In this document: in pieces, positions 336 through 19,855 of the stretch | Layout: every line of letters starts with the position of its first letter | Position numbering within the stretch: position 1 is the stretch's first letter | Origin: an uncultured virus (IMG/VR IMGVR_UViG_3300025162_000048) | Taxonomy: Duplodnaviria; Heunggongvirae; Uroviricota; Caudoviricetes | DNA length: 20,000 bases | Direction: 5' to 3' (one strand) | Virus record (IMG/VR): IMGVR_UViG_3300025162_000048 | The notes under the pieces: generated by a model | Databases searched by the model: none | What the model was told of the DNA's origin: nothing | Seen by the model: only the letters and a program-made list of their open reading frames with translations | Position numbers and translations under genes: made by a program

Positions 336-1127
336 TTAATTTGGATAGATCACTTTTAATGTATTGTAGAATTCATTTGAACAGCTTTTTAATTGATCGT
401 TAAGTCCACCTTTATTCGGATCGACTGCACGCAAGCATCGTTTTATGGTATTGAAAGCTTCCCATACTTTAGCTTTGGTAGCGGCCTCGGCTGAATCTGC
501 AATATGGCGAGCAGCGGCTTCAGCCTCATTTTGAAATTGCATCAGCAATACATCATATTGTTCGAAATGAGCCGCGCAGCTCGCTTGGTCAGCCGCGATT
601 TTGCCAAACATTCCAGAGGCAGATCCCACTGCTTGAAACAGCATATTTTTGCGGATCATGGCTTCATCTAATCCGGCATATTGTGATCTTAGAGAGGCTT
701 CATTGTCGAACCAAGTTCCCATAATATCGTCAACACTCGGATGAAATGATGGCTCAACTCGACCTCTTGGCCATGCTCCCTTCCACATACCTTTCATTTG
801 ACCAATATCATTTGAACTACTCATCTTTTGAGCTTCACAGAGAAATTTATCTGAGTACCAGTATCCCCACCAAGGATCGCCATTTAAATCCTCGCGCATA
901 ACAAGTTCTTGAGGAGTTGAATCGACATTGGTAAGGTCGTAGCCAAGAGCCGCATTGTATGGGATATTTTTGTTGGTATAGACGCATTTGTAAACAGATT
1001 TATTTGGATTACTCGAAATATATCCTTTTAATGGGCGTAAGCAACTCCATGTAAATGCAGTGTCATCGGCTAAAGCCGTTGTTGATACCAGTGCCAAAGT
1101 TAATGCAAGAGATGTCCTAAAATTCAT
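336..1127 (-). CDS. Secreted hypothetical protein (Sec signal peptide), Cys-containing, helical C-terminus
   Basis: 263-aa ORF; N-terminus MNFRTSLALTLALVSTTALA-DD with AxA cleavage site; SD-like AAGGA upstream. Confidence 0.8.
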   Translation of the reverse strand: MNFRTSLALTLALVSTTALADDTAFTWSCLRPLKGYISSNPNKSVYKCVYTNKNIPYNAALGYDLTNVDSTPQELVMREDLNGDPWWGYWYSDKFLCEAQKMSSSNDIGQMKGMWKGAWPRGRVEPSFHPSVDDIMGTWFDNEASLRSQYAGLDEAMIRKNMLFQAVGSASGMFGKIAADQASCAAHFEQYDVLLMQFQNEAEAAARHIADSAEAATKAKVWEAFNTIKRCLRAVDPNKGGLNDQLKSCSNEFYNTLKVIYPN

Positions 1128-1166
1128 ATATGGTTCCTTTATGTTAATTGTTTATCCACCATGTAA

Positions 1167-2189
1167 TCACCAATCATGACATGGGGCTGTTTTAGAACTT
1201 TTATTTAAACAAGATTCAATGAGAACTAAGTTATGCCTGAAAGTATTCATATCGCCGTTATTTTTCAATAAGTCATATTGTTCAGATAGCTTTTTTTCGA
1301 GATATTTTTTCTGGATACTGCGATCTAATTGATTTACTATTTCGGGTTTATCCATCAATTCTGCGGCATTTTCCATATGATTCAAATAAGGAAGTGTGTT
1401 GGTTTTCAGTAACTGAGAATCTTTAGATGTGTGTACCGACGCCAAGGCATCTGGCAATCCTTTAGCATTGAAGCCTGCGGTTTGAAGATATAGTTTACAA
1501 ATCGCTTCAGGATGCTTATTTAAAAACGCCTGAATTTTATCCTTAGCAGTACCCTCTTCTAAATCATTAGCCAAAACCTTTAATTCATCTGTATAGTTTT
1601 TCGGGCATTCTAAAAGCATCTCGGCCTGCGTTCCGAACTCATAACTTTCAATGAAGGCATCCCCGCAGGTATCAAAGAAAGCTGGAACTTGAAGTAATGA
1701 TTGATAAGTCTGTGCATCGAACTCGCGATTGAGGAAAGAGAACTTTTGATGTCGTTGAGAGGATCGGATGAACACATAAGATTTATCAGTGCTGAGTAGC
1801 TTTTCAAAAATACTATCTATAGCGCCATCAGTGAGGACTTTTTCTTTTTTAAAGTTGCTAGAGGTCGCCAGGAGAATATTAAAGTCGGTAGGTGCGAATT
1901 TGGATAGTGCTTCTTGATTATCCAAATAGGCTGTTTCAAATTTAGGGTTAGGTGCCATTGGGTCGGCAACATAAGCGCTGTGTTTGATACATGACACTTG
2001 CTTGGGAAAATCGTAGTGAGTGTAAGGGCCAACCAGGGAGTTTACTCCAGCACCGACGAGTGGCTGATAGCGTTCGCCCATCAATTGAATGACTTCCAGA
2101 GTACCGGGTTTAGAATCAGCCTTTGGAGCATCTGTGTGTGTTCCACATGCACCCAATAACGGCACAAGCCCAATTAATAACTTTTTCAT
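1167..2189 (-). CDS. Lipoprotein with MACPF-like motifs
   Basis: ATG at 2189 after AAGGAG; lipobox LGAC; motifs VGAGVNSLVG and FFDTCGDAFIESYEFG, shared with the neighbouring gene. The fold call is inference from motif resemblance. Confidence 0.6.
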   Translation of the reverse strand: MKKLLIGLVPLLGACGTHTDAPKADSKPGTLEVIQLMGERYQPLVGAGVNSLVGPYTHYDFPKQVSCIKHSAYVADPMAPNPKFETAYLDNQEALSKFAPTDFNILLATSSNFKKEKVLTDGAIDSIFEKLLSTDKSYVFIRSSQRHQKFSFLNREFDAQTYQSLLQVPAFFDTCGDAFIESYEFGTQAEMLLECPKNYTDELKVLANDLEEGTAKDKIQAFLNKHPEAICKLYLQTAGFNAKGLPDALASVHTSKDSQLLKTNTLPYLNHMENAAELMDKPEIVNQLDRSIQKKYLEKKLSEQYDLLKNNGDMNTFRHNLVLIESCLNKSSKTAPCHDW

Positions 2190-2201
2190 ATGCAAACTCC
2201 T

Positions 2202-3377
2202 TTAAAGCCAGCCATCATCTGGATTACACGCTGAGGAAATATTGGGATGTTTGGCACAATTATAGTTAAAATCAGCTTGTTTTTGCAGGTTATATTCAAG
2301 ATCGATCTTTTTTGAAAGAAGTTTTTTGTATTCAGTTTCAGAGATTCCACTATAATCTTTTTTATATTTAGCCAAAAGCAATTCAGTGCCAGTCAATTGA
2401 TTGAACATTTCATTGAAGTTTTGTTGACCGGTAAGAACTAATTGTTTCTCTGCATTATAGTCATGTTTAATTTTCGGTAAAACTTTTTCTTTAAAATCCA
2501 AATTTTGAATCATGGTGTATGGTGTGGTGCCAACTTTCATTAGCTTGGCGCTTTCAATAGGGGCTTTTTCTACATAGTCTAAGAAAATTTGAGGTGCAGC
2601 GCTAATATTATCGCCAGCGATTGATAACGTTCCGTTGCCACCAAGATGGTAATACCAAATATGGCAAGCACCACTTACGTTTTTCTGCATTTCTTCTAAA
2701 GATTTAGTGTCCTTGACGTTAGCATGGATTGACCAACTATTTACTCCAGCTTGTATCACTTTTTCATTTTTTTCTTTATCAGTGACGCTGGTAGCTTCGC
2801 AATCAATAAGCCCATAAGCGACGATGCCTGAAATTAAAGATGAAATGAATTCATCTCCACAGCTATCGAACCAATCTTCTGGATGTTTAGAATAGATGTC
2901 GATAATTTTGGGGTCCACGTCGAAATCTGACATAGTATTGCTTGCAAAAATTCGAGAGGCTGTCATTAGTGCGTAAGAATGGGTTGATTCTAAGCGAAAC
3001 TCTGCAATATTTTTGGTTGTGCTGTTATAGGTTGCACCAATAAGATTTTTCTTAATAGAAGCGTTAATGCCAACTTCGAGAGAAAAATCTGACTCTACAA
3101 TTCTGGAAAGTTCATTTTGATCTTTAAGCCAATAGACTTCAACTGTGGAATTCGCACCGGTACCCCCTGTATATCCCATAGAAGCGCGTTTAACACAGAA
3201 TGCCATATCATAATTTGGCAAAATTCCTGTTAGGGTATTAACACCTTTCCCGATATCCAAGTTTGCTGCATCTACCGGAACAGAAATAGGCAATCCTTTT
3301 AAAGCACTAGAATTATCACCTCCACTATTGGAACAAGATACTAAAAATGCAGGTAGTGCTAAGAATAATTTTTTCAC
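2202..3377 (-). CDS. Lipoprotein with MACPF-like motifs and C-terminal coiled coil
   Basis: GTG start after GAGGTG; lipobox LVSC; motifs IGKGVNTLTG and WFDSCGDEFISSLISG resemble the MACPF N-terminal lGxGyn and core (Y/F)G(T/D)xF/Y-x6-G motifs. Confidence 0.65.
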   Translation of the reverse strand: MKKLFLALPAFLVSCSNSGGDNSSALKGLPISVPVDAANLDIGKGVNTLTGILPNYDMAFCVKRASMGYTGGTGANSTVEVYWLKDQNELSRIVESDFSLEVGINASIKKNLIGATYNSTTKNIAEFRLESTHSYALMTASRIFASNTMSDFDVDPKIIDIYSKHPEDWFDSCGDEFISSLISGIVAYGLIDCEATSVTDKEKNEKVIQAGVNSWSIHANVKDTKSLEEMQKNVSGACHIWYYHLGGNGTLSIAGDNISAAPQIFLDYVEKAPIESAKLMKVGTTPYTMIQNLDFKEKVLPKIKHDYNAEKQLVLTGQQNFNEMFNQLTGTELLLAKYKKDYSGISETEYKKLLSKKIDLEYNLQKQADFNYNCAKHPNISSACNPDDGWL

Positions 3378-4129: not shown

Positions 4130-4471
4130 TTTCGTATAGTCACGACAAGGAAGGTCATCTTGTTTTTTCGCCACAAGATAGTTATCTGGTTTCTCATCCA
4201 GACTGATCACATACAAGTATGCAATCTATTTTTGCCAGTCTCACTCTGGCTGACAGTGGTGATACAGTCATGCCTCAAATTTCTCCTTGGCACTTCTAAA
4301 AACCCCACGTATTGTATCGATAACCAACTTCACTCGACCGCTGTAATTCGCAATGATAAAAAGGTGAGATCGTCAAGATGATGTTATGCACACATCATTC
4401 GCAAGGCTTGAACTTGCTAAACTGGCAAAAGCCAGTTATTAACCGATAAACAATACTCATCGACCATTGCG
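4130..4471 (-). ncRNA. Unidentified highly structured non-coding RNA (~340 nt)
   Basis: Begins just downstream of a TTGACA-N17-TATTCT promoter; at least 9 hairpins, two long-range closing helices and two loop-loop complementarities. G-U pairs work on the minus strand. No convincing ORF. The 3' end is approximate. Confidence 0.65.
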
Positions 4472-4476
4472 CTTAT

Positions 4477-4505
4477 AGAATAAGATAGATTTTTTTATTT
4501 GTCAA
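4477..4505 (-). promoter_or_regulatory. sigma70 promoter driving the structured non-coding segment
   Basis: Minus strand TTGACA (4505-4500), N17, TATTCT (4482-4477). Confidence 0.75.
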
Positions 4506-4643: not shown

Positions 4644-5675
4644 TTAAAGTCCTATTACATCAAGTTTTATAGCCGCACTTTGTTGCATTTCATCGGCTTT
4701 TTTTATATAAAGTGAGGTTGTAGTGATTTTTTTATGGTTTAATAAATCTTGGATTTCCCCGATAGGAACTCCTTTTTTATGAAGCAAAGTAGCCAGAGTA
4801 GCCCTACAACTATGAGGACTAATTCTTTTTTCAATCTTAGCTTCCTTTATAAGTTTTTGAAGAAGTCTGGCAACACTACTTCTGCCAAGTTTATTTCTTT
4901 TAGAAGTGTTTTGTGCTCTGGTAAATAAGAAATCGTCTCTGCTGGCCTTCATTCGAAACTTTTCAATATATTCTTGTAGGACTTGGACAGTATGAGGATG
5001 AATAATAGGAGAATGACATTCCCCACCTTTTACCCTCATGTGCAGTCGTGTGTATTCTGGCTGGATTTCAATATCACCGATGCGAAGTTCACAAAGCTCA
5101 TCAACCCTCATTCCTACTGATAAAAGAGTTGAAATAATTGCATAATTCATTGCATTTGACCTATAGGATCTATCAGTTTGAGCCTTTTCTTCCATCTTGT
5201 TCTTCGCTAATGCCAGCACTTCTTTGACTTCATTCTCGGAGAGTGCATTGGTTTTTCCTTCTTGTTTCACTCGAGGTAATTCAACCAATCTTGCCGGGTT
5301 TTTCTGGATTAAGCCTCTCTTTAAAGCGAACTCTAGACACGAAGACAAAGCACACATTGTCCTAGCAATACTGGAATTGACTGTGTGTTTTCGATTACCT
5401 TCATGGATAAAATGACGGTTACCCAATTCTTCTCGCCAAAGTAAAATCATTTTTTCATTAACTTGGCTTATCTCGGTTATGGTGATATGCATACTTTTAA
5501 TAAATTTGAAAAACTCTCTTAAGTCCCTTGCATAATTAGTTCGAGTGTTTTCACAACGTAAACTCATCAAAAAATGAAAAACCACATCTTCAATCTGAGC
5601 CGAACAATCCTGTTTAATCCATTCCTGCCAAGACAAAGATGGTGATTGATTCAATACCTGTTCGACTAAATACAT
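4644..5675 (-). CDS. Tyrosine recombinase/integrase, XerC/XerD-like, catalytically intact
   Basis: SAM-like core-binding N-terminus (NTRTNYARDL...NPARLV); catalytic R (GMRVDEL), K (RVKGG), HxxR (PHSCRAT), H (LLNHKK) and Y (TTSLYIK). Confidence 0.95.
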   Translation of the reverse strand: MYLVEQVLNQSPSLSWQEWIKQDCSAQIEDVVFHFLMSLRCENTRTNYARDLREFFKFIKSMHITITEISQVNEKMILLWREELGNRHFIHEGNRKHTVNSSIARTMCALSSCLEFALKRGLIQKNPARLVELPRVKQEGKTNALSENEVKEVLALAKNKMEEKAQTDRSYRSNAMNYAIISTLLSVGMRVDELCELRIGDIEIQPEYTRLHMRVKGGECHSPIIHPHTVQVLQEYIEKFRMKASRDDFLFTRAQNTSKRNKLGRSSVARLLQKLIKEAKIEKRISPHSCRATLATLLHKKGVPIGEIQDLLNHKKITTTSLYIKKADEMQQSAAIKLDVIGL

Positions 5676-6725: not shown

Positions 6726-7229
6726 TTAAATGATACGTTTTAAGGGATTGTCGCCAATCATGTCAGTATAAGCAAGCATTTTTCTGATGACGGTCGGATT
6801 TGGAGAGAATTTATCTGAAGAAATAATTTTCGAGACTAAAAGCCAATCGTGTTCCATGATCCCTTTGGCCACCGCAACACCTGCCGAACGACTCACTCCT
6901 CCCTTACAGTGAATGATCATAGGTTTATCAATCCACTTATTAAAAAAATTATAGAGATTTTCTGCATCGTCATTGGAAATTAAAACCCGTGAAGGATGAA
7001 GACAAGACTCAATGACATCGGAAAAACATAAATCCAAAACTTCAAGATATTTTTGTTTGACTTCACCAGATAAAGGAGATTCAGACACATCCCTTATTGA
7101 GATTAAAGGATATTTTTCTTTTGGAATCCATTGCTCTACCTGTATTCGACTTAAAATTAAAGTTCCCAAAGATGCAATCTCTTCGTCACTCTCATAAATA
7201 GTCATCAGTCCTTCAGTATCAATTTTCAC
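6726..7229 (-). CDS. Protein tyrosine/dual-specificity phosphatase-like protein (CX5R)
   Basis: IIHCKGGVSRSAGVA P-loop, with LISIRD, LCFSD and SPNPTV motifs typical of the phage-type predicted PTP family; GTG start after GGAGG. Confidence 0.88.
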   Translation of the reverse strand: MKIDTEGLMTIYESDEEIASLGTLILSRIQVEQWIPKEKYPLISIRDVSESPLSGEVKQKYLEVLDLCFSDVIESCLHPSRVLISNDDAENLYNFFNKWIDKPMIIHCKGGVSRSAGVAVAKGIMEHDWLLVSKIISSDKFSPNPTVIRKMLAYTDMIGDNPLKRII

Positions 7230-10018: not shown

Positions 10019-10450
10019 ATGCCAAAATTTATTGCTCCAACCGACGAAGAAGTAATCGCCTGTGCCGAAACTGGCTTATCCATGAATCAAACCTGCCGCA
10101 AACTCGGATTGACTTCCATCGGCTGGCTTACCAAATATCTCAAACAGCCAGGGAAAGAAAAACTCCACGCGAGGTTTATTCAGAATGGAAAGAAAAGACA
10201 AGAAAATTATCAACTTTGTGGATATTCACAACCCACTGAAATCTATTTTCCACACTGTTACACTCCTTTACCTGATGGATATAAAGTCATTTGGAGCGAA
10301 GTAACTGAAAAATATCTAGGAATAAATAAAGAAAAAAATATTGAAAGTCCTATTTTCAGTTCACGCTTCGCTGCTAGAAATTGGTGTTTTTTAAATGCTG
10401 GTATTGAAATTCCCAGAAGACATGCTAAGATTTATCGTGCTGGTCGTTAA
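10019..10450 (+). CDS. Putative HTH DNA-binding protein
   Basis: N-terminal GLSMNQTCRKLGLTSIGWLTKYL fits a helix-turn-helix pattern; SD GAGGA. Confidence 0.65.
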   Translation: MPKFIAPTDEEVIACAETGLSMNQTCRKLGLTSIGWLTKYLKQPGKEKLHARFIQNGKKRQENYQLCGYSQPTEIYFPHCYTPLPDGYKVIWSEVTEKYLGINKEKNIESPIFSSRFAARNWCFLNAGIEIPRRHAKIYRAGR

Positions 10451-10520
10451 GATTGGGTTATCAGGTAAATTACCCCATTCTTGCTTTTTTATCAGCAAAA
10501 TAAAAGGAAATTTTGATTTC

Positions 10521-11003: not shown

Positions 11004-11618
11004 CTAGACCAACAAGTAAAGACCAAATCCAATTAAGATTAAACTTGAAACTTTATGAATATACTTTAGCCATTTACCACTCTTTGGAATGACTTTCTTA
11101 AATCCTAATCCCATAACTAAAATTACACTTGAAAAGCCTAAAGCATATAAGGTCATTGTTAAAACAGATAAAATTATACTGTTCTGACTTGCTGCCATAG
11201 CTAAAACAGATCCTAACAGTGGAGTTACACAAGGGGAATAGAGAAGACTTGAAGATATTCCAAAAAGGAAAGCTGATAAATTCGAACAAATATTACCTAC
11301 CTTAAAAAAGTTATTGAGTCCTGACAAAAATGATGGTGTCCAATCAAAAAAAGAAACCACGCCAAACAGAATGAACAAGACTGACATGCCAATTCTCACT
11401 AAAGGAATACCTGATGAAAACCCTAAAACCTGTCCAATCAGCAAAGCCAGAACTCCCAAGACCGAAAGCATAAACCATTGTCCAAAAATAAAGACAATCA
11501 GCTTTGATCTGTTTTCTCTCACTCCAAAATATCCTAAAGTTACTGGTAATAATGGAAAAACACATGGACTTAATGTCGCTAACAATCCCGCTAAAAAGGC
11601 CGATCCTAGTAATATCAT
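11004..11618 (-). CDS. ccdA: CcdA/DsbD-beta family membrane thiol-disulfide electron transporter
   Basis: About six TM segments with the two conserved PC motifs (LSPCVFPLLP and YSPCVTPLLG). Confidence 0.92.
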   Translation of the reverse strand: MILLGSAFLAGLLATLSPCVFPLLPVTLGYFGVRENRSKLIVFIFGQWFMLSVLGVLALLIGQVLGFSSGIPLVRIGMSVLFILFGVVSFFDWTPSFLSGLNNFFKVGNICSNLSAFLFGISSSLLYSPCVTPLLGSVLAMAASQNSIILSVLTMTLYALGFSSVILVMGLGFKKVIPKSGKWLKYIHKVSSLILIGFGLYLLV

Positions 11619-12007
11619 TTCAAAGTCTCCAATACTTTCTCTTCATTGAATCCTGATCCGCTGTCCTTTAATTCCCAGTCAGCCTTCTTTATGAAAACCG
11701 CCCAATGAGGGACTGCATAGACTTTCACTTTTTTGGATAACGTTCTGTCGTCATCCTTTTCGATAAATGCTGGAATTTGAATGTTCTTGGATGTAATTAT
11801 ATATTTTGCTCGGTTGATATTTCTGTCCATACTTACAGTTATTACGCTAGTCTTCTTGGCAATATCTGGTAGGACATCTACCATCTTTTCCTTACATTCC
11901 GAACACCAAGAACCCCAAAAAAATACCAATAATTTATTACTGTCAATTGGTTTCACATCATTTAAGGCTATCAGATTAAAAACGGTTAAAAATGTCGGTA
12001 TTATCAT
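11615..12007 (-). CDS. TlpA/ResA-like thioredoxin-fold disulfide reductase
   Basis: FWGSWCSECK (WCxxC), VITVSMD and cis-Pro VYAVP; ATGA-coupled to ccdA. Confidence 0.88.
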   Translation of the reverse strand: MIIPTFLTVFNLIALNDVKPIDSNKLLVFFWGSWCSECKEKMVDVLPDIAKKTSVITVSMDRNINRAKYIITSKNIQIPAFIEKDDDRTLSKKVKVYAVPHWAVFIKKADWELKDSGSGFNEEKVLETLK

Positions 12008-13841: not shown

Positions 13842-13925
13842 CGATGCGAATCTATTTGGACAACGGTCATAACTGAAAACCATTTTCGACACATGATTCA
13901 GCAGACCGTTGGATATTCTGGTCGG
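13842..13925 (+). ncRNA. Structured RNA upstream of Ro60 (candidate minimal Y RNA or autoregulatory leader)
   Basis: CAACGGTC/GACCGTTG (13861-68/13904-11), internal loop, CTGAA/TTCAG, CAT/ATG, apical loop containing TTCGAC; weaker outer pairing CGAT..GAAT/ATTC..GTCG; directly before the Ro60 SD. Confidence 0.45.
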
Positions 13926-13947
13926 ACTTATCAGGAGGTTATTATAT

Positions 13948-15537
13948 ATGACTAATATTTATACCAATTTCTTTAATCCTCAAACTATTCCTCAAACTTC
14001 TGCTCTTCCTGATAAAAATCAAGTGAAAAATAATGCTGACGGCTATGTTTTCCAGATTTCTCCTATGAGCCAATTGATGAGGTTTTTGATTTTGGGAACA
14101 TCCGGCGGAACGTACTATGTCAAAGAACGAAAACTGACTGAAGAGAATGTGGACGCTCTTGTGAAATTCATTAAAGAGGACGGCAAGACCGTAGTGCAAA
14201 CCGTTTTGGATGTATCCCGTGCAGGCCGAGCTCCAAAGAACGACCCAGCCATTTTTGTACTTGCATTAGCGGCAACCCATGGCTCACCAGAAACAAAGAA
14301 AATGGTGTACGACAATATTCACAGAGTCTGTCGTATCGGTACCCATCTATTTCACTTTTGCGAGATGGTTAACAAAATGCGCAAATGGAGCGGTGGACTT
14401 CGCCGTGGTGTTGCGGACTTTTATTTGACCAAAAACAAAGACCAACTTGCTGTCCAATTACTTAAATATCGACAACGTGATGGCTGGACACACCGTGACG
14501 TATTGCGTTTGTGTCATGCCGGAAGTAACGATCCGATGATTAACGTCATGCTGAGATATGCAGTCGGAAAGCCTATTGATATAAAGCTAACAACAGATAA
14601 TCCATTCGCAGTGATTCCCCATCCACTCATTGCCGCATTTGAAATAGTTCAGAAAATACCAAACGTAAAAGAAGCTATTCCTTTAATTAAAGAACACAAA
14701 ATGACTTGGGAAATGCTGCCAACATCCTTTCTCACCGACAAAATAACTTGGAAAACATTACTTCCAGAAATGCCTTTGACCGCTATGCTTAGAAATATTA
14801 CCAAAATGGCTAATCTGGGAATGTTCACTTCTGAATTATGCGACAACACCAAAACAGTTGTGACTAAACTGCAAAATAATGATGACATCAAAAAACAACG
14901 TGTCCATCCCTTTCAGATTTTGCTGGCATTGAAAGCTTTTGAACTTCTGCTAGGACAGCCTAAAGGAATTAAAACAGCCCTTAATGAAGCCTTTTATGCC
15001 TCTTTTGGCCATGTAAATCCTACTGGGAAGAACTTTATGGTCGGAATGGATGTCAGTGGAAGTATGCACTATGAAACTATAATGAACACCAATATCACAC
15101 CAGCTATGGCAGGAACAGCACTGGCTATGTTGCTCGTAAGGACTGAACCTTGGGTAGAAACAATGGCCTTCGCGGACAGTTTTATTAGATTTCCTCTTGG
15201 CAAAACTGACACTCTTGAAAGCGTTATGGAGAAATCAACACAGCTAGGAATGTCCAGAACAGACTGCGCTCTTCCAATACTTTATGCAATCCAGAATAAA
15301 TTACCGGTAGATGTCTTTGTGATTACGACTGATAATGAAACATATTGTGGAAGTATTCACCCGATTGAAGCATTAAAAAAGTATAGACAGATTTCTGGAA
15401 GGAATGCAAAACTCATTGTAATAGGCATGACATCTACTGGCTTTTCCATCGCCGATCCTTCAGATTCTGGCTGTTTAGATGTTTGTGGTTTTGATGCAGG
15501 TTTAGGTGATGTACTCAATGCTTTCGTGAGGGACTAA
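13948..15537 (+). CDS. rsr: Ro60/Rsr TROVE + vWA domain RNA-binding protein
   Basis: NNADGYVF, RFLILGTSGGTYY, GRAPKNDPAIF, KYRQRDGWTHRDVLRL, MPLTAMLRN; MIDAS DVSGSM, TDCALP, TDNET; C-terminal GFSIADP..LDVCGFD. ATG 13948 after AGGAGG. Confidence 0.97.
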   Translation: MTNIYTNFFNPQTIPQTSALPDKNQVKNNADGYVFQISPMSQLMRFLILGTSGGTYYVKERKLTEENVDALVKFIKEDGKTVVQTVLDVSRAGRAPKNDPAIFVLALAATHGSPETKKMVYDNIHRVCRIGTHLFHFCEMVNKMRKWSGGLRRGVADFYLTKNKDQLAVQLLKYRQRDGWTHRDVLRLCHAGSNDPMINVMLRYAVGKPIDIKLTTDNPFAVIPHPLIAAFEIVQKIPNVKEAIPLIKEHKMTWEMLPTSFLTDKITWKTLLPEMPLTAMLRNITKMANLGMFTSELCDNTKTVVTKLQNNDDIKKQRVHPFQILLALKAFELLLGQPKGIKTALNEAFYASFGHVNPTGKNFMVGMDVSGSMHYETIMNTNITPAMAGTALAMLLVRTEPWVETMAFADSFIRFPLGKTDTLESVMEKSTQLGMSRTDCALPILYAIQNKLPVDVFVITTDNETYCGSIHPIEALKKYRQISGRNAKLIVIGMTSTGFSIADPSDSGCLDVCGFDAGLGDVLNAFVRD

Positions 15538-18854: not shown

Positions 18855-19019
18855 ATGAAAGAAAGCGAAGTTTTAACCAGCGCAGCCTCTATTGTTGAAT
18901 CTCTAGCAAAAGTGAACGATAATAATATAGATTTTCAAGGAGTAGCTAAATTTTTATTCAATCTCGCCAAAGTTTATAAGGAAGTAAAAGAGTGTCAGTC
19001 CAATTCTATAGTCTCATAA
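18855..19019 (+). CDS. 54-aa hypothetical protein (not in the ORF track)
   Basis: AAGGAG-N7-ATG; MKESEVLTSAASIVESLAKVNDNNIDFQGVAKFLFNLAKVYKEVKECQSNSIVS*; overlaps the start of the next gene. Confidence 0.7.
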   Translation: MKESEVLTSAASIVESLAKVNDNNIDFQGVAKFLFNLAKVYKEVKECQSNSIVS

Positions 19020-19855
19020 AAGAATTCTTCGATGGATTACTACCCGATACCCGTAATGCATACCGACGCAATATTAAAAGATTTCTGGATTTCTCTAAAG
19101 TAAATGAATTCGACCAAATCACTGTGCCTGCATTACTTGCCTTTAGGGAAGAGTTATTAAGAGTCAATACCAAATACAGCACAATCAATCATTGTTTTTG
19201 TTCGATTTCTTCATTACTGGAATTCGCAAAAAGAAAAAAAATCATCTCTGAAAACCCTGCATTAAAAGTTCCTCGGCCAACCTTTAAACGCCAGCCAAAA
19301 CTGCAAACAAAAACTTTGAGCTATCAGGAATGCCAGAAAATATTAGAAGCCGCCAAACCAATTCTTCGCGAATATGCAATTATTTTTGTTCTGTTGAATA
19401 CCGGAATGGAAGCTGAAGAAATGATGAATTTAAGAATCCGAGACTTGGAAATTACAGATGAGTATGCGCAACTCCATCTAAGATCAACTCGTAGGAAAAT
19501 CACTCACCGTACTATTATTATCAATATGGACACAGCAAATGTCATTATGGACTATTTAGTCACAGACCGCTTAAAAAAAGATAGTTGCACTGATGATAAT
19601 TGCTGGATGTTCGGCGCAAAGAAAAAACTTAACCCCTTCGCACTCTATTTTATCGTCAGACGTAATGCCAATAAAGCAGGACTTAATCCCAAAATTACTC
19701 CATACAGTCTCAGAATGACCGTCGCTAAATTGCTGGCTAAAGAAAAAAACGTTAGGAAAGCGGAAATCAAAGAACTCATCAACATAAAAGACGCTCTAAT
19801 CCTTCAAAAACGGATCGCACGCTCACCAACCCGAAAGCTAAACTTCCTTAAATAA
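18992..19855 (+). CDS. Tyrosine-recombinase-fold protein with degenerate active site
   Basis: Core-binding domain (DTRNAYRRNIKRF...ENPALKV) and catalytic-domain scaffold, but GMEAEE (R->E), PYSLR (H->Y), ELINIK (H->I) and no C-terminal Tyr. Confidence 0.85.
   Translation: MSVQFYSLIKEFFDGLLPDTRNAYRRNIKRFLDFSKVNEFDQITVPALLAFREELLRVNTKYSTINHCFCSISSLLEFAKRKKIISENPALKVPRPTFKRQPKLQTKTLSYQECQKILEAAKPILREYAIIFVLLNTGMEAEEMMNLRIRDLEITDEYAQLHLRSTRRKITHRTIIINMDTANVIMDYLVTDRLKKDSCTDDNCWMFGAKKKLNPFALYFIVRRNANKAGLNPKITPYSLRMTVAKLLAKEKNVRKAEIKELINIKDALILQKRIARSPTRKLNFLK

Follow-up and report, generated by a model that had tools for sequence, protein, structure and literature searches.

The window, meaning the whole 20,000-nucleotide stretch of DNA analysed here, codes for two tyrosine recombinases, an HTH replication-initiator-like gene, four tRNAs, a DsbD/thioredoxin pair and a Ro60 homologue, and no phage structural gene was found among the 23-25 window ORFs scanned. 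The closest named relatives of the recombinase located upstream of the RNA region (Table 1) are mostly Silvanigrellales, at about 35-53% identity, and on this basis the element probably belongs to a Silvanigrellales-like bacterium, as a phage or another kind of mobile element. Another, divergent tyrosine recombinase is encoded at 18992-19855 (plus strand), and both score far below the XerC/XerD cut-offs. Searches with the whole element returned nothing beyond chance in phage records (8 weak short matches), in plasmids and in first 5 and later 131 genomes from the likely host class, and a recombinase-led search of viral contigs recovered no relative.

Other loci of the window hold a CX5R phosphatase-like ORF (6726-7229, minus strand; Pfam DSPc E 0.001, phrog_5614 E 5e-12), which could have a role in RNA end repair, and, between tRNA genes, a DsbD-like membrane protein with a thioredoxin-like gene (11004-12007, minus strand), an odd cargo for a phage-like element. 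Moreover, three genes at 336-3377 (minus strand), probably with secreted or lipoprotein products and without a Pfam, PHROG or NCBIfam match, are preceded by a near-consensus promoter-like site near 3470-3440.

Table 1. Coordinates of the putative Y-like RNAs, their promoter and the associated protein genes in the window
Feature	Position	Strand	Remarks
Tyrosine recombinase	4644..5675	-	upstream neighbour of the RNA region
Sigma-70-like promoter, TTGACA-17-TATTCT	4477..4505	-	10/12 consensus matches; expected start near 4470
Y-like RNA 1 (D1), about 123 nt	4349..4471	-	MFE -39.9, z -4.0; R3 41.7 bits, E 2.7e-8
tRNA T-arm in D1	4401..4417	-	5-bp stem, loop UUCAAGC
5' strand of Y-like RNA 2 (D2): GGUCGA, 7 nt, UGGUUAUC	4319..4343	-	16.7 bits
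Short-form D2 3' partner, RNA about 90 nt	4254..4262	-	family pairing model 11.7 vs -2.3 bits; disfavoured by folding energy
Long-form D2 3' partner, RNA about 200 nt	4142..4153	-	MFE closing helix; pairing probability about 0.7-0.97 at paired positions
Four-hairpin module	4152..4253	-	z -4.5 minus strand vs -1.1 plus strand
Y-like RNA 3 (D3), short hairpin type	10436..10499	+	R2 E 7.8e-6; R3 E 3.1e-5
Ro60/Rsr homologue, 529 aa, TROVE + vWA domains	13948..15537	+	inferred partner protein

Promoter and folding of the minus-strand region

The interval 4130-4505 had been described in an earlier note as a single two-domain, pseudoknotted non-coding RNA in the spirit of ROOL/GOLLD, with its own promoter and with the adjacent recombinase or Ro60 as possible partners. 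The promoter-like site TTGACA-N17-TATTCT is present at 4505-4477 on the minus strand and ends 6 nt ahead of D1; since such patterns are not enriched in the window (2 against 1.1 expected, and 4 against 6.3 in a looser scan), it is this position that lends it support. A TTGACA-led pattern also precedes a distant Y-like array in another Ro60 locus (L060).

The minus strand of 4130-4475 folds with -100.6 kcal/mol (z -3.2) and 0 of 100 shuffles are as good, against z -2.5 for the plus strand, although simple helix counts are only mildly above those of the shuffles. Together with the promoter-like site, this bears out the description of a structured non-coding RNA region whose transcription is probable. 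The G-U pairs hold on one strand only, as described, and the 3' hairpin cluster is strand-specific in its folding (Table 1).

An Rfam search of the region with E up to 10 gave no known family (one chance match), whereas Rfam on the whole window reported four tRNAs and nothing else. ARAGORN reported no tmRNA in the window, and inspection agreed with the earlier statement that tmRNA, RNase P RNA and intron signatures are missing; two-piece tmRNA, RNase P RNA and group I and II introns were rejected on these grounds. The region shows neither a CCA end nor a P4 signature.

Domain 1 and its T-arm

Folded alone, D1 takes up as its MFE structure one long, interrupted end-to-end stem around a three-hairpin junction, in which the C of GGUCGA at position 4462 is bulged; its plus strand scores similarly. 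GGUCGA occurs 5 times on the two window strands, and 2 of these occurrences, which the earlier note had overlooked, head D1 and D2. The layout of D1 comprises the 5'/3' stem, the upper stem, the junction UUAUCGGUUAA, a 7-bp hairpin, the T-arm and a 7-bp acceptor-like hairpin. Specifically, the GCAAG/CUUGC hairpin already listed is a perfect tRNA T-arm, likewise overlooked at that time, and the only perfect one in the 20 kb, on both strands, outside three tRNA genes. A D arm is absent, as is CCA both after the T-arm and after the acceptor-like strand. The T-arm and the GG-bearing junction are probably a mimic of the tRNA elbow, in which the junction GG and the T loop could form a tRNA-like elbow.

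Attachment sites often carry the 3' ends of tRNAs, and the region lies just downstream of a recombinase gene, so that the T-arm might be the tRNA 3' fragment of an attP and the whole region a DNA attachment site, or else an RNA partner of the recombinase. The chance of this is close to negligible: no CCA follows the T-arm, the G-U pairs hold on one strand only, and none of the 21 genome loci around recombinase relatives holds similar DNA, which also speaks against the recombinase as partner. An attP was rejected, with no match beyond chance in the 131 host-class genomes. Only 1 of the 160 Ro60 loci considered below (best 80 viral and best 80 metagenome) holds a recombinase relative, and the 1.5 kb around that relative contain no Y-like RNA; two exact hairpin patterns run against viral contigs returned 24 loci, all by chance.

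Similar RNAs encoded beside Ro60 genes

A single Ro60 protein as query recovered no viral locus, so that an alignment was needed, and a 30-protein Ro60 alignment matched 534 viral and 597 metagenome loci, from each of which sets the best 80 were used. A regular expression for Y-like RNAs matched exactly two places in the window, D1 and D2; it was written after viewing both loci and window and is therefore circular. In the best 80 of 534 viral loci, it found 109 matches within 2 kb of Ro60 on the same strand (45/80 loci), 0 nearby on the opposite strand and 33 elsewhere, with 0 in 227 kb of controls. The circularity was removed by learning the motif from 83 unique Ro60-near T-arm RNAs, with the window left out of the choice. 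The learned motif, which is narrower (GGGCCG, 6-8 nt, GGTTA), is by itself not significant at the scale of the window, where the window sites rank fourth, sixth and ninth.

The closing helix adds to the motif. Across 261 unique sites, it shows 167 Watson-Crick pairs beside the bulge against 122.6 expected, with the tested position left out of the choice of partner, and little or no excess at offsets 2 and 5. A motif-plus-helix model, trained on the 160 of these 261 sites that passed score cut-offs (51 viral Ro60 loci), places D2 (20.5 bits), D3 (20.4 bits, site 10441) and D1 (17.2 bits) as its top three in the window, followed by a site at 11.5 bits; the chance matches expected per shuffled window are 0.003, 0.003 and 0.07, respectively. 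In a held-out test on the best 80 of 597 metagenome loci, 256 matches fell within 2.5 kb of Ro60 and on its strand, in 74/80 loci; elsewhere there were 0 nearby on the opposite strand, 17 farther off on the same strand and 1 on the opposite strand inside the gene. The controls gave 1 match in 227 kb.

Two covariance models divide the window RNAs between them, and both miss D2. The R2 model, built on 61 short RNAs with rows chosen by pairing score (86.9% of cells paired, against 62.8% in shuffles), finds D3, misses D1 and reports nothing in 59 control loci. The R3 model was built on 13 metagenome RNAs (15 picked for resembling D1, less one with a long insert and one with wrong ends) and finds D1 and D3 (Table 1). 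On the 1.52 Mb of viral Ro60 loci (best 80 of 534) plus the window, D1 is second of 33 R3 matches and the only one on the minus strand; the first is L061:9266-9381, in a locus where Ro60 is directly preceded by five such RNAs, among them a D1-like one and another of 246 nt. A one-sequence model (R1) finds only D1, and D3 weakly. Compared with the R3 consensus, D1 is changed on both sides in 5/8 pairs of the lower stem, 3/8 of the upper stem and 2/5 of the T stem, that is 10/21 stem pairs with 0 broken, as read by hand from the alignment. Covariation, which had been put forward as a check, is seen in the closing helix of the Ro60 loci. D1 and D2 are weakly alike in sequence, with p from about 0.003 to 0.2 depending on scoring. 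Among the 21 top R3 matches showing the motif, 16 have a GG within two bases after UUAUC, and 54 of 348 unique RNAs have a T-arm and no D arm. By its sequence and pairing, D1 is thereby recognised as a homologue of the RNAs encoded beside Ro60 genes, with their bulged-C end stem.

R3 has no match in the 131 host-class genomes, an uninformative result because one of them (G010) carries Ro60 followed by four Y-like RNAs, as called by a script model, the first of which shares the upper stem of D1. Similarly, Rfam at the gathering threshold detects no Y family in 7/7 Ro60 loci (L060, L061, L067, L081, L115, L119, L127) that hold clear arrays, and the silence of its Y family model on the window RNAs is therefore uninformative.

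The Ro60 loci also contain RNAs of other kinds. A coherent D-less subclass with V hairpin, T arm, acceptor-like hairpin and junction GG is represented by L183:8178-8285, L188:439-546, L165:6312-6423 and about 20 more; unpermuted tRNA-like cargo, with the order D, anticodon, T, is seen at L206:2187-2291, L176:628-733, L162:474-581 and L148:4443-4584; and a short Y-like RNA, L127:2962-3031, is called a nematode sRNA family by Rfam.

Of the partners suggested earlier, Ro60 offers the best reading of the sequence, given the R3 and motif-plus-helix matches to Ro60-adjacent RNAs. A single pseudoknotted RNA is unsupported, since D1 aligns end to end with stand-alone RNAs and the proposed pseudoknots are at chance (see below). 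That the region is a new large pseudoknotted RNA of the ROOL/GOLLD kind, unrelated to Y RNAs, is barely credible on these two grounds; its size, its own promoter, the folding z of -3.2, the lack of an Rfam match and 3' hairpins without a relative would suit such an RNA, but Rfam is equally blind to the arrays of all seven Ro60 loci.

Domain 2 and pairing between the domains

D2 follows D1 after 7 nt and opens with the two-part 5' motif seen there. No site in the window matches the motif better than this 5' strand (chance about 4e-6 per position); spacers in arrays have a median of 13 nt and a 5th percentile of 7 nt (n = 220). Two places compete for the 3' end of D2, the family pairing model favouring 4262-4254 and the folding energy 4153-4142. 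In the long form, the MFE register bulges a U and not a C, and relative to the free ensemble the canonical register is less favourable by 5.7 kcal/mol in the long form and by 9.6 kcal/mol in the short one. Neither form has a clean upper stem, and D2 has no T arm.

The four-hairpin module would either belong to a long D2, as its effector insert, or form an RNA of its own within one transcript with D2. No relative of it was found in the Ro60 loci or by pattern searches, and a search for the D2-type pattern gave 4 loci, none with a convincing closing helix. T-less RNAs of at least 170 nt make up 8 of the 348 unique Ro60-locus RNAs; the D2 insert resembles none of them (best z 2.9), and at least one looks like coding sequence. 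Long Y-like RNAs with several hairpins and no T arm, measuring 173-286 nt, are found at L061:9631-9876, L143:3241-3506, L144:7420-7705, L136:5728-5938, L112:6216-6388 and L165:6685-6863; those of L061 (246 nt) and L143 (266 nt) are related, as are those of L112 and L165.

All four of the checked long-range complementarities of the earlier note pair fully, and its hairpins appear in the predicted fold, but CGAUGAG/UUUAUCG has a probability of about 4e-9 when D1 folds alone. The helix given as closing D2 has a probability of about 1e-3. The two cross-domain pseudoknots are among 6 Watson-Crick runs of at least 6 between the domains, against an expectation of 5.6, and the Y stem takes up their 5' strands, which are mostly 0.8-0.9 paired inside D1's own stem. 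In the whole 339-nt chain, the form with two Y stems lies 8.3 kcal/mol above the free ensemble, and the MFE uses the GUAUUGU/ACAAUAC helix; it is assumed that co-transcriptional folding and processing would avoid such pairing. Besides, a 10-bp perfect complementarity exists between 4430-4421, in a D1 hairpin, and 4239-4230, in a module hairpin, and is reached in about 4% of shuffles.

An alternative is an uncut RNA of about 330 nt, a double scaffold with two Ro60 sites, a tRNA-like and a multi-hairpin module, which may switch between local Y stems and pairing across the domains. It would agree with the single promoter, with the 7-nt spacer at the lower edge of the 220 array spacers, with the 10-bp complementarity, with a free MFE that pairs the domains and with the lack of any terminator found between D1 and D2. 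Such an RNA is nonetheless improbable, given that the relatives of D1 are separate array members with closed stems of their own, that known arrays, as described in PMC4201824, are cut from a single precursor, and that the cross-domain runs, taken together, are about as many as chance would give.

Ro60, the third RNA and their positions

The window Ro60 gene is intact. The protein scores 440 of 900 bits, under the NCBIfam Rsr equivalog cut-off, and its His190 lines up with vertebrate His187, a residue that PMC4030889 names as binding Y RNA. Few genomes of the likely host class carry Ro60 (3/131, 2 of them over the Pfam cut-off), in keeping with an element that supplies Ro60 RNPs of its own to act on host RNA decay. 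No rtcB was seen among the window ORFs scanned; further Y-like genes or rtcB may lie beyond the window ends. Just before the Ro60 start, two small hairpins (13861-13911 and 13914-13938) have weak Y-model E values of 0.14 and 4.9, and they are possibly a Ro60-binding leader or a relic.

D3 lies 170 nt before a tRNA-Leu/Leu/Pro cluster, behind a weak promoter-like site at 10404-10431. It lacks a T arm, and its 64 nt place it in the median class among Ro60-adjacent matches and below the published size range.

With regard to the synteny with Ro60 that had been proposed as a check, the gene is in the window, but the D1/D2 pair is 9.4 kb from it and on the opposite strand, whereas D3 is 3.4 kb away on the same strand. 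Distance has precedents, in that five loci have same-strand matches at least 6 kb from Ro60 and the TTGACA-led array of L060 is 9.1-9.4 kb away; an opposite-strand array has no clear precedent among the 160 Ro60 loci (best 80 viral and best 80 metagenome), 90 of which have a 9.5 kb flank on at least one side. Strand and distance would also suit a displaced and partly decayed array, moved or inverted from Ro60 and no longer used, in which D1 is intact and D2 is degenerate, as its missing clean upper stem and its costly canonical registers (5.7 to 9.6 kcal/mol) might indicate. We regard this as highly improbable in view of a near-consensus promoter in the right place, of D1 pairs that are all intact against the family consensus and of 3' hairpins that fold strongly and on one strand.

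Comparison with known Y RNAs

As described in PMC4201824, Y RNAs can be tandem and co-transcribed, arrays are processed from a single precursor, and YrlA genes, with few exceptions, are located no more than 4 kb from Ro60 and on its strand; bioRxiv 10.1101/312249 gives bacterial Y RNAs a size of up to about 220 nt. By the broad tests for Y RNAs, D1 and D3 have an end-pairing stem and D2 closes in either of two ways, the GGUCGA 5' strand, which resembles the Ro60-binding GGUCCGA and GNCGAAN0-1G and matches the motif learned from Ro60-adjacent RNAs, is found in D1 and D2, and the sizes are 123 nt (D1), about 90 or 200 nt (D2) and 64 nt (D3), compared with 80 to about 220 nt. Lastly, Ro60, with its aligned Y RNA-binding histidine, is encoded on the same replicon as D1-D3.

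According to the descriptions of YrlA/YrlB from Salmonella Typhimurium and Mycobacterium smegmatis (PMC4201824, bioRxiv 10.1101/312249), the window RNAs share with them a GNCGA-type 5' motif near the start, YUAY after the upper stem, a long 5'/3' stem, the order of V hairpin, T arm and acceptor-like hairpin (D1), the tandem arrangement and a short hairpin-type companion (D3). In the described YrlA, however, a D arm follows the acceptor stem, while in D1 the junction ahead of the V hairpin carries GG in its place, and the YrlA motif is GNCGAAG while D1 has GUCGAUG. The window pair further differs from the described YrlA/YrlB by its place 9.4 kb from Ro60 on the other strand, by the lack of rtcB in the window ORFs scanned and by the lack of an Rfam match. 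D1 is not filed as YrlA, having the T arm but lacking the D arm. The strict GNCGAAN0-1G is unmatched at D1 and D2, and neither lies within 4 kb of Ro60 on the same strand.

Yrn1/Yrn2 of Deinococcus radiodurans and metazoan Y RNAs, by their description in PMC4201824 and PMC4030889, resemble D1 in keeping both strands of the bulged-C helix, with a pyrimidine-rich stretch before the 3' strand, and like D1 they have a T arm without a full D arm and D-like features ahead of the T arm. D1 differs from the described Yrn1/Yrn2 by an extra 7-bp hairpin after the T arm, by GGUCGA in place of GGUCCGA and, with D2, by its distance, Yrn1 being reported within 2 kb of rsr. In the Thermus phage phiLo, Ro60 with two Y-like RNAs (Yrl1/Yrl2) binds the host PNPase and attenuates it (PMC12135203). 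From what that report describes, phiLo resembles the window in its element-encoded Ro60, in having more than one Y-like RNA and in a host lineage mostly without Ro60. Conversely, the phiLo RNAs are reported directly upstream of Ro60, unlike D1/D2, the Ro60 proteins are distant (E 5e-15), and the binding and attenuation reported for PNPase have a presumed counterpart in the window.

ROOL, GOLLD, OLE and raiA-type RNAs are alike in their phage-like context, own promoter and many helices; the window region differs from them in that it has no Rfam match, resolves into smaller Y-like units and offers no support for pseudoknots. In the literature searched, neither a D-less Y subclass, nor long multi-hairpin Y RNAs, nor arrays unlinked from Ro60 were found, and the supplements of PMC4201824 could list some.

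Proposed function

The region 4130-4505 is, with good confidence, a predicted two-gene Y RNA-like array behind its own sigma-70-type promoter, serving the Ro60 of the element. By comparison with known systems, a single precursor transcript would cover the array and be cut into the individual RNAs, with Ro60 binding the GGUCGA strand of D1 and of D2. The far end of each RNA would be the effector module, namely the T-arm and GG junction in D1 and a rod, possibly with the four hairpins, in D2.

If the RNAs belong to the Y family, they may, by analogy with phiLo and with a little less than an even chance, tether the element's Ro60 to the host PNPase or to another RNA-decay factor and alter the turnover of host RNA. 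The next most likely uses would be the gating of Ro60 and the decoying of tRNA-directed enzymes. A more speculative proposal, which we consider doubtful, is that D2 would be a 200-nt Y RNA whose new five-helix effector domain recruits some host factor that is not PNPase, and that D2 might stay joined to the tRNA-mimicking D1, the two forming one Ro60 scaffold with two sites; D2 would then be part of the little-described set of long T-less multi-hairpin RNAs, and phage Ro60 would be a platform with exchangeable RNA adaptors made from unlinked promoters.

The orphan four-hairpin module, the D-less subclass and the position unlinked from Ro60 are unusual. The reading as a Y RNA-like array removes a candidate for a new ornate RNA, and it implies that Y RNA arrays can sit far from Ro60, escape Rfam and so be taken for one large pseudoknotted RNA. 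Moreover, it touches on the question of which partners Y RNAs from bacteria and phages recruit with their effector ends, for which one Ro60 with three differently loaded RNAs (a hairpin, a D-less tRNA mimic and a multi-hairpin form) would provide a compact set for the comparison of partners.
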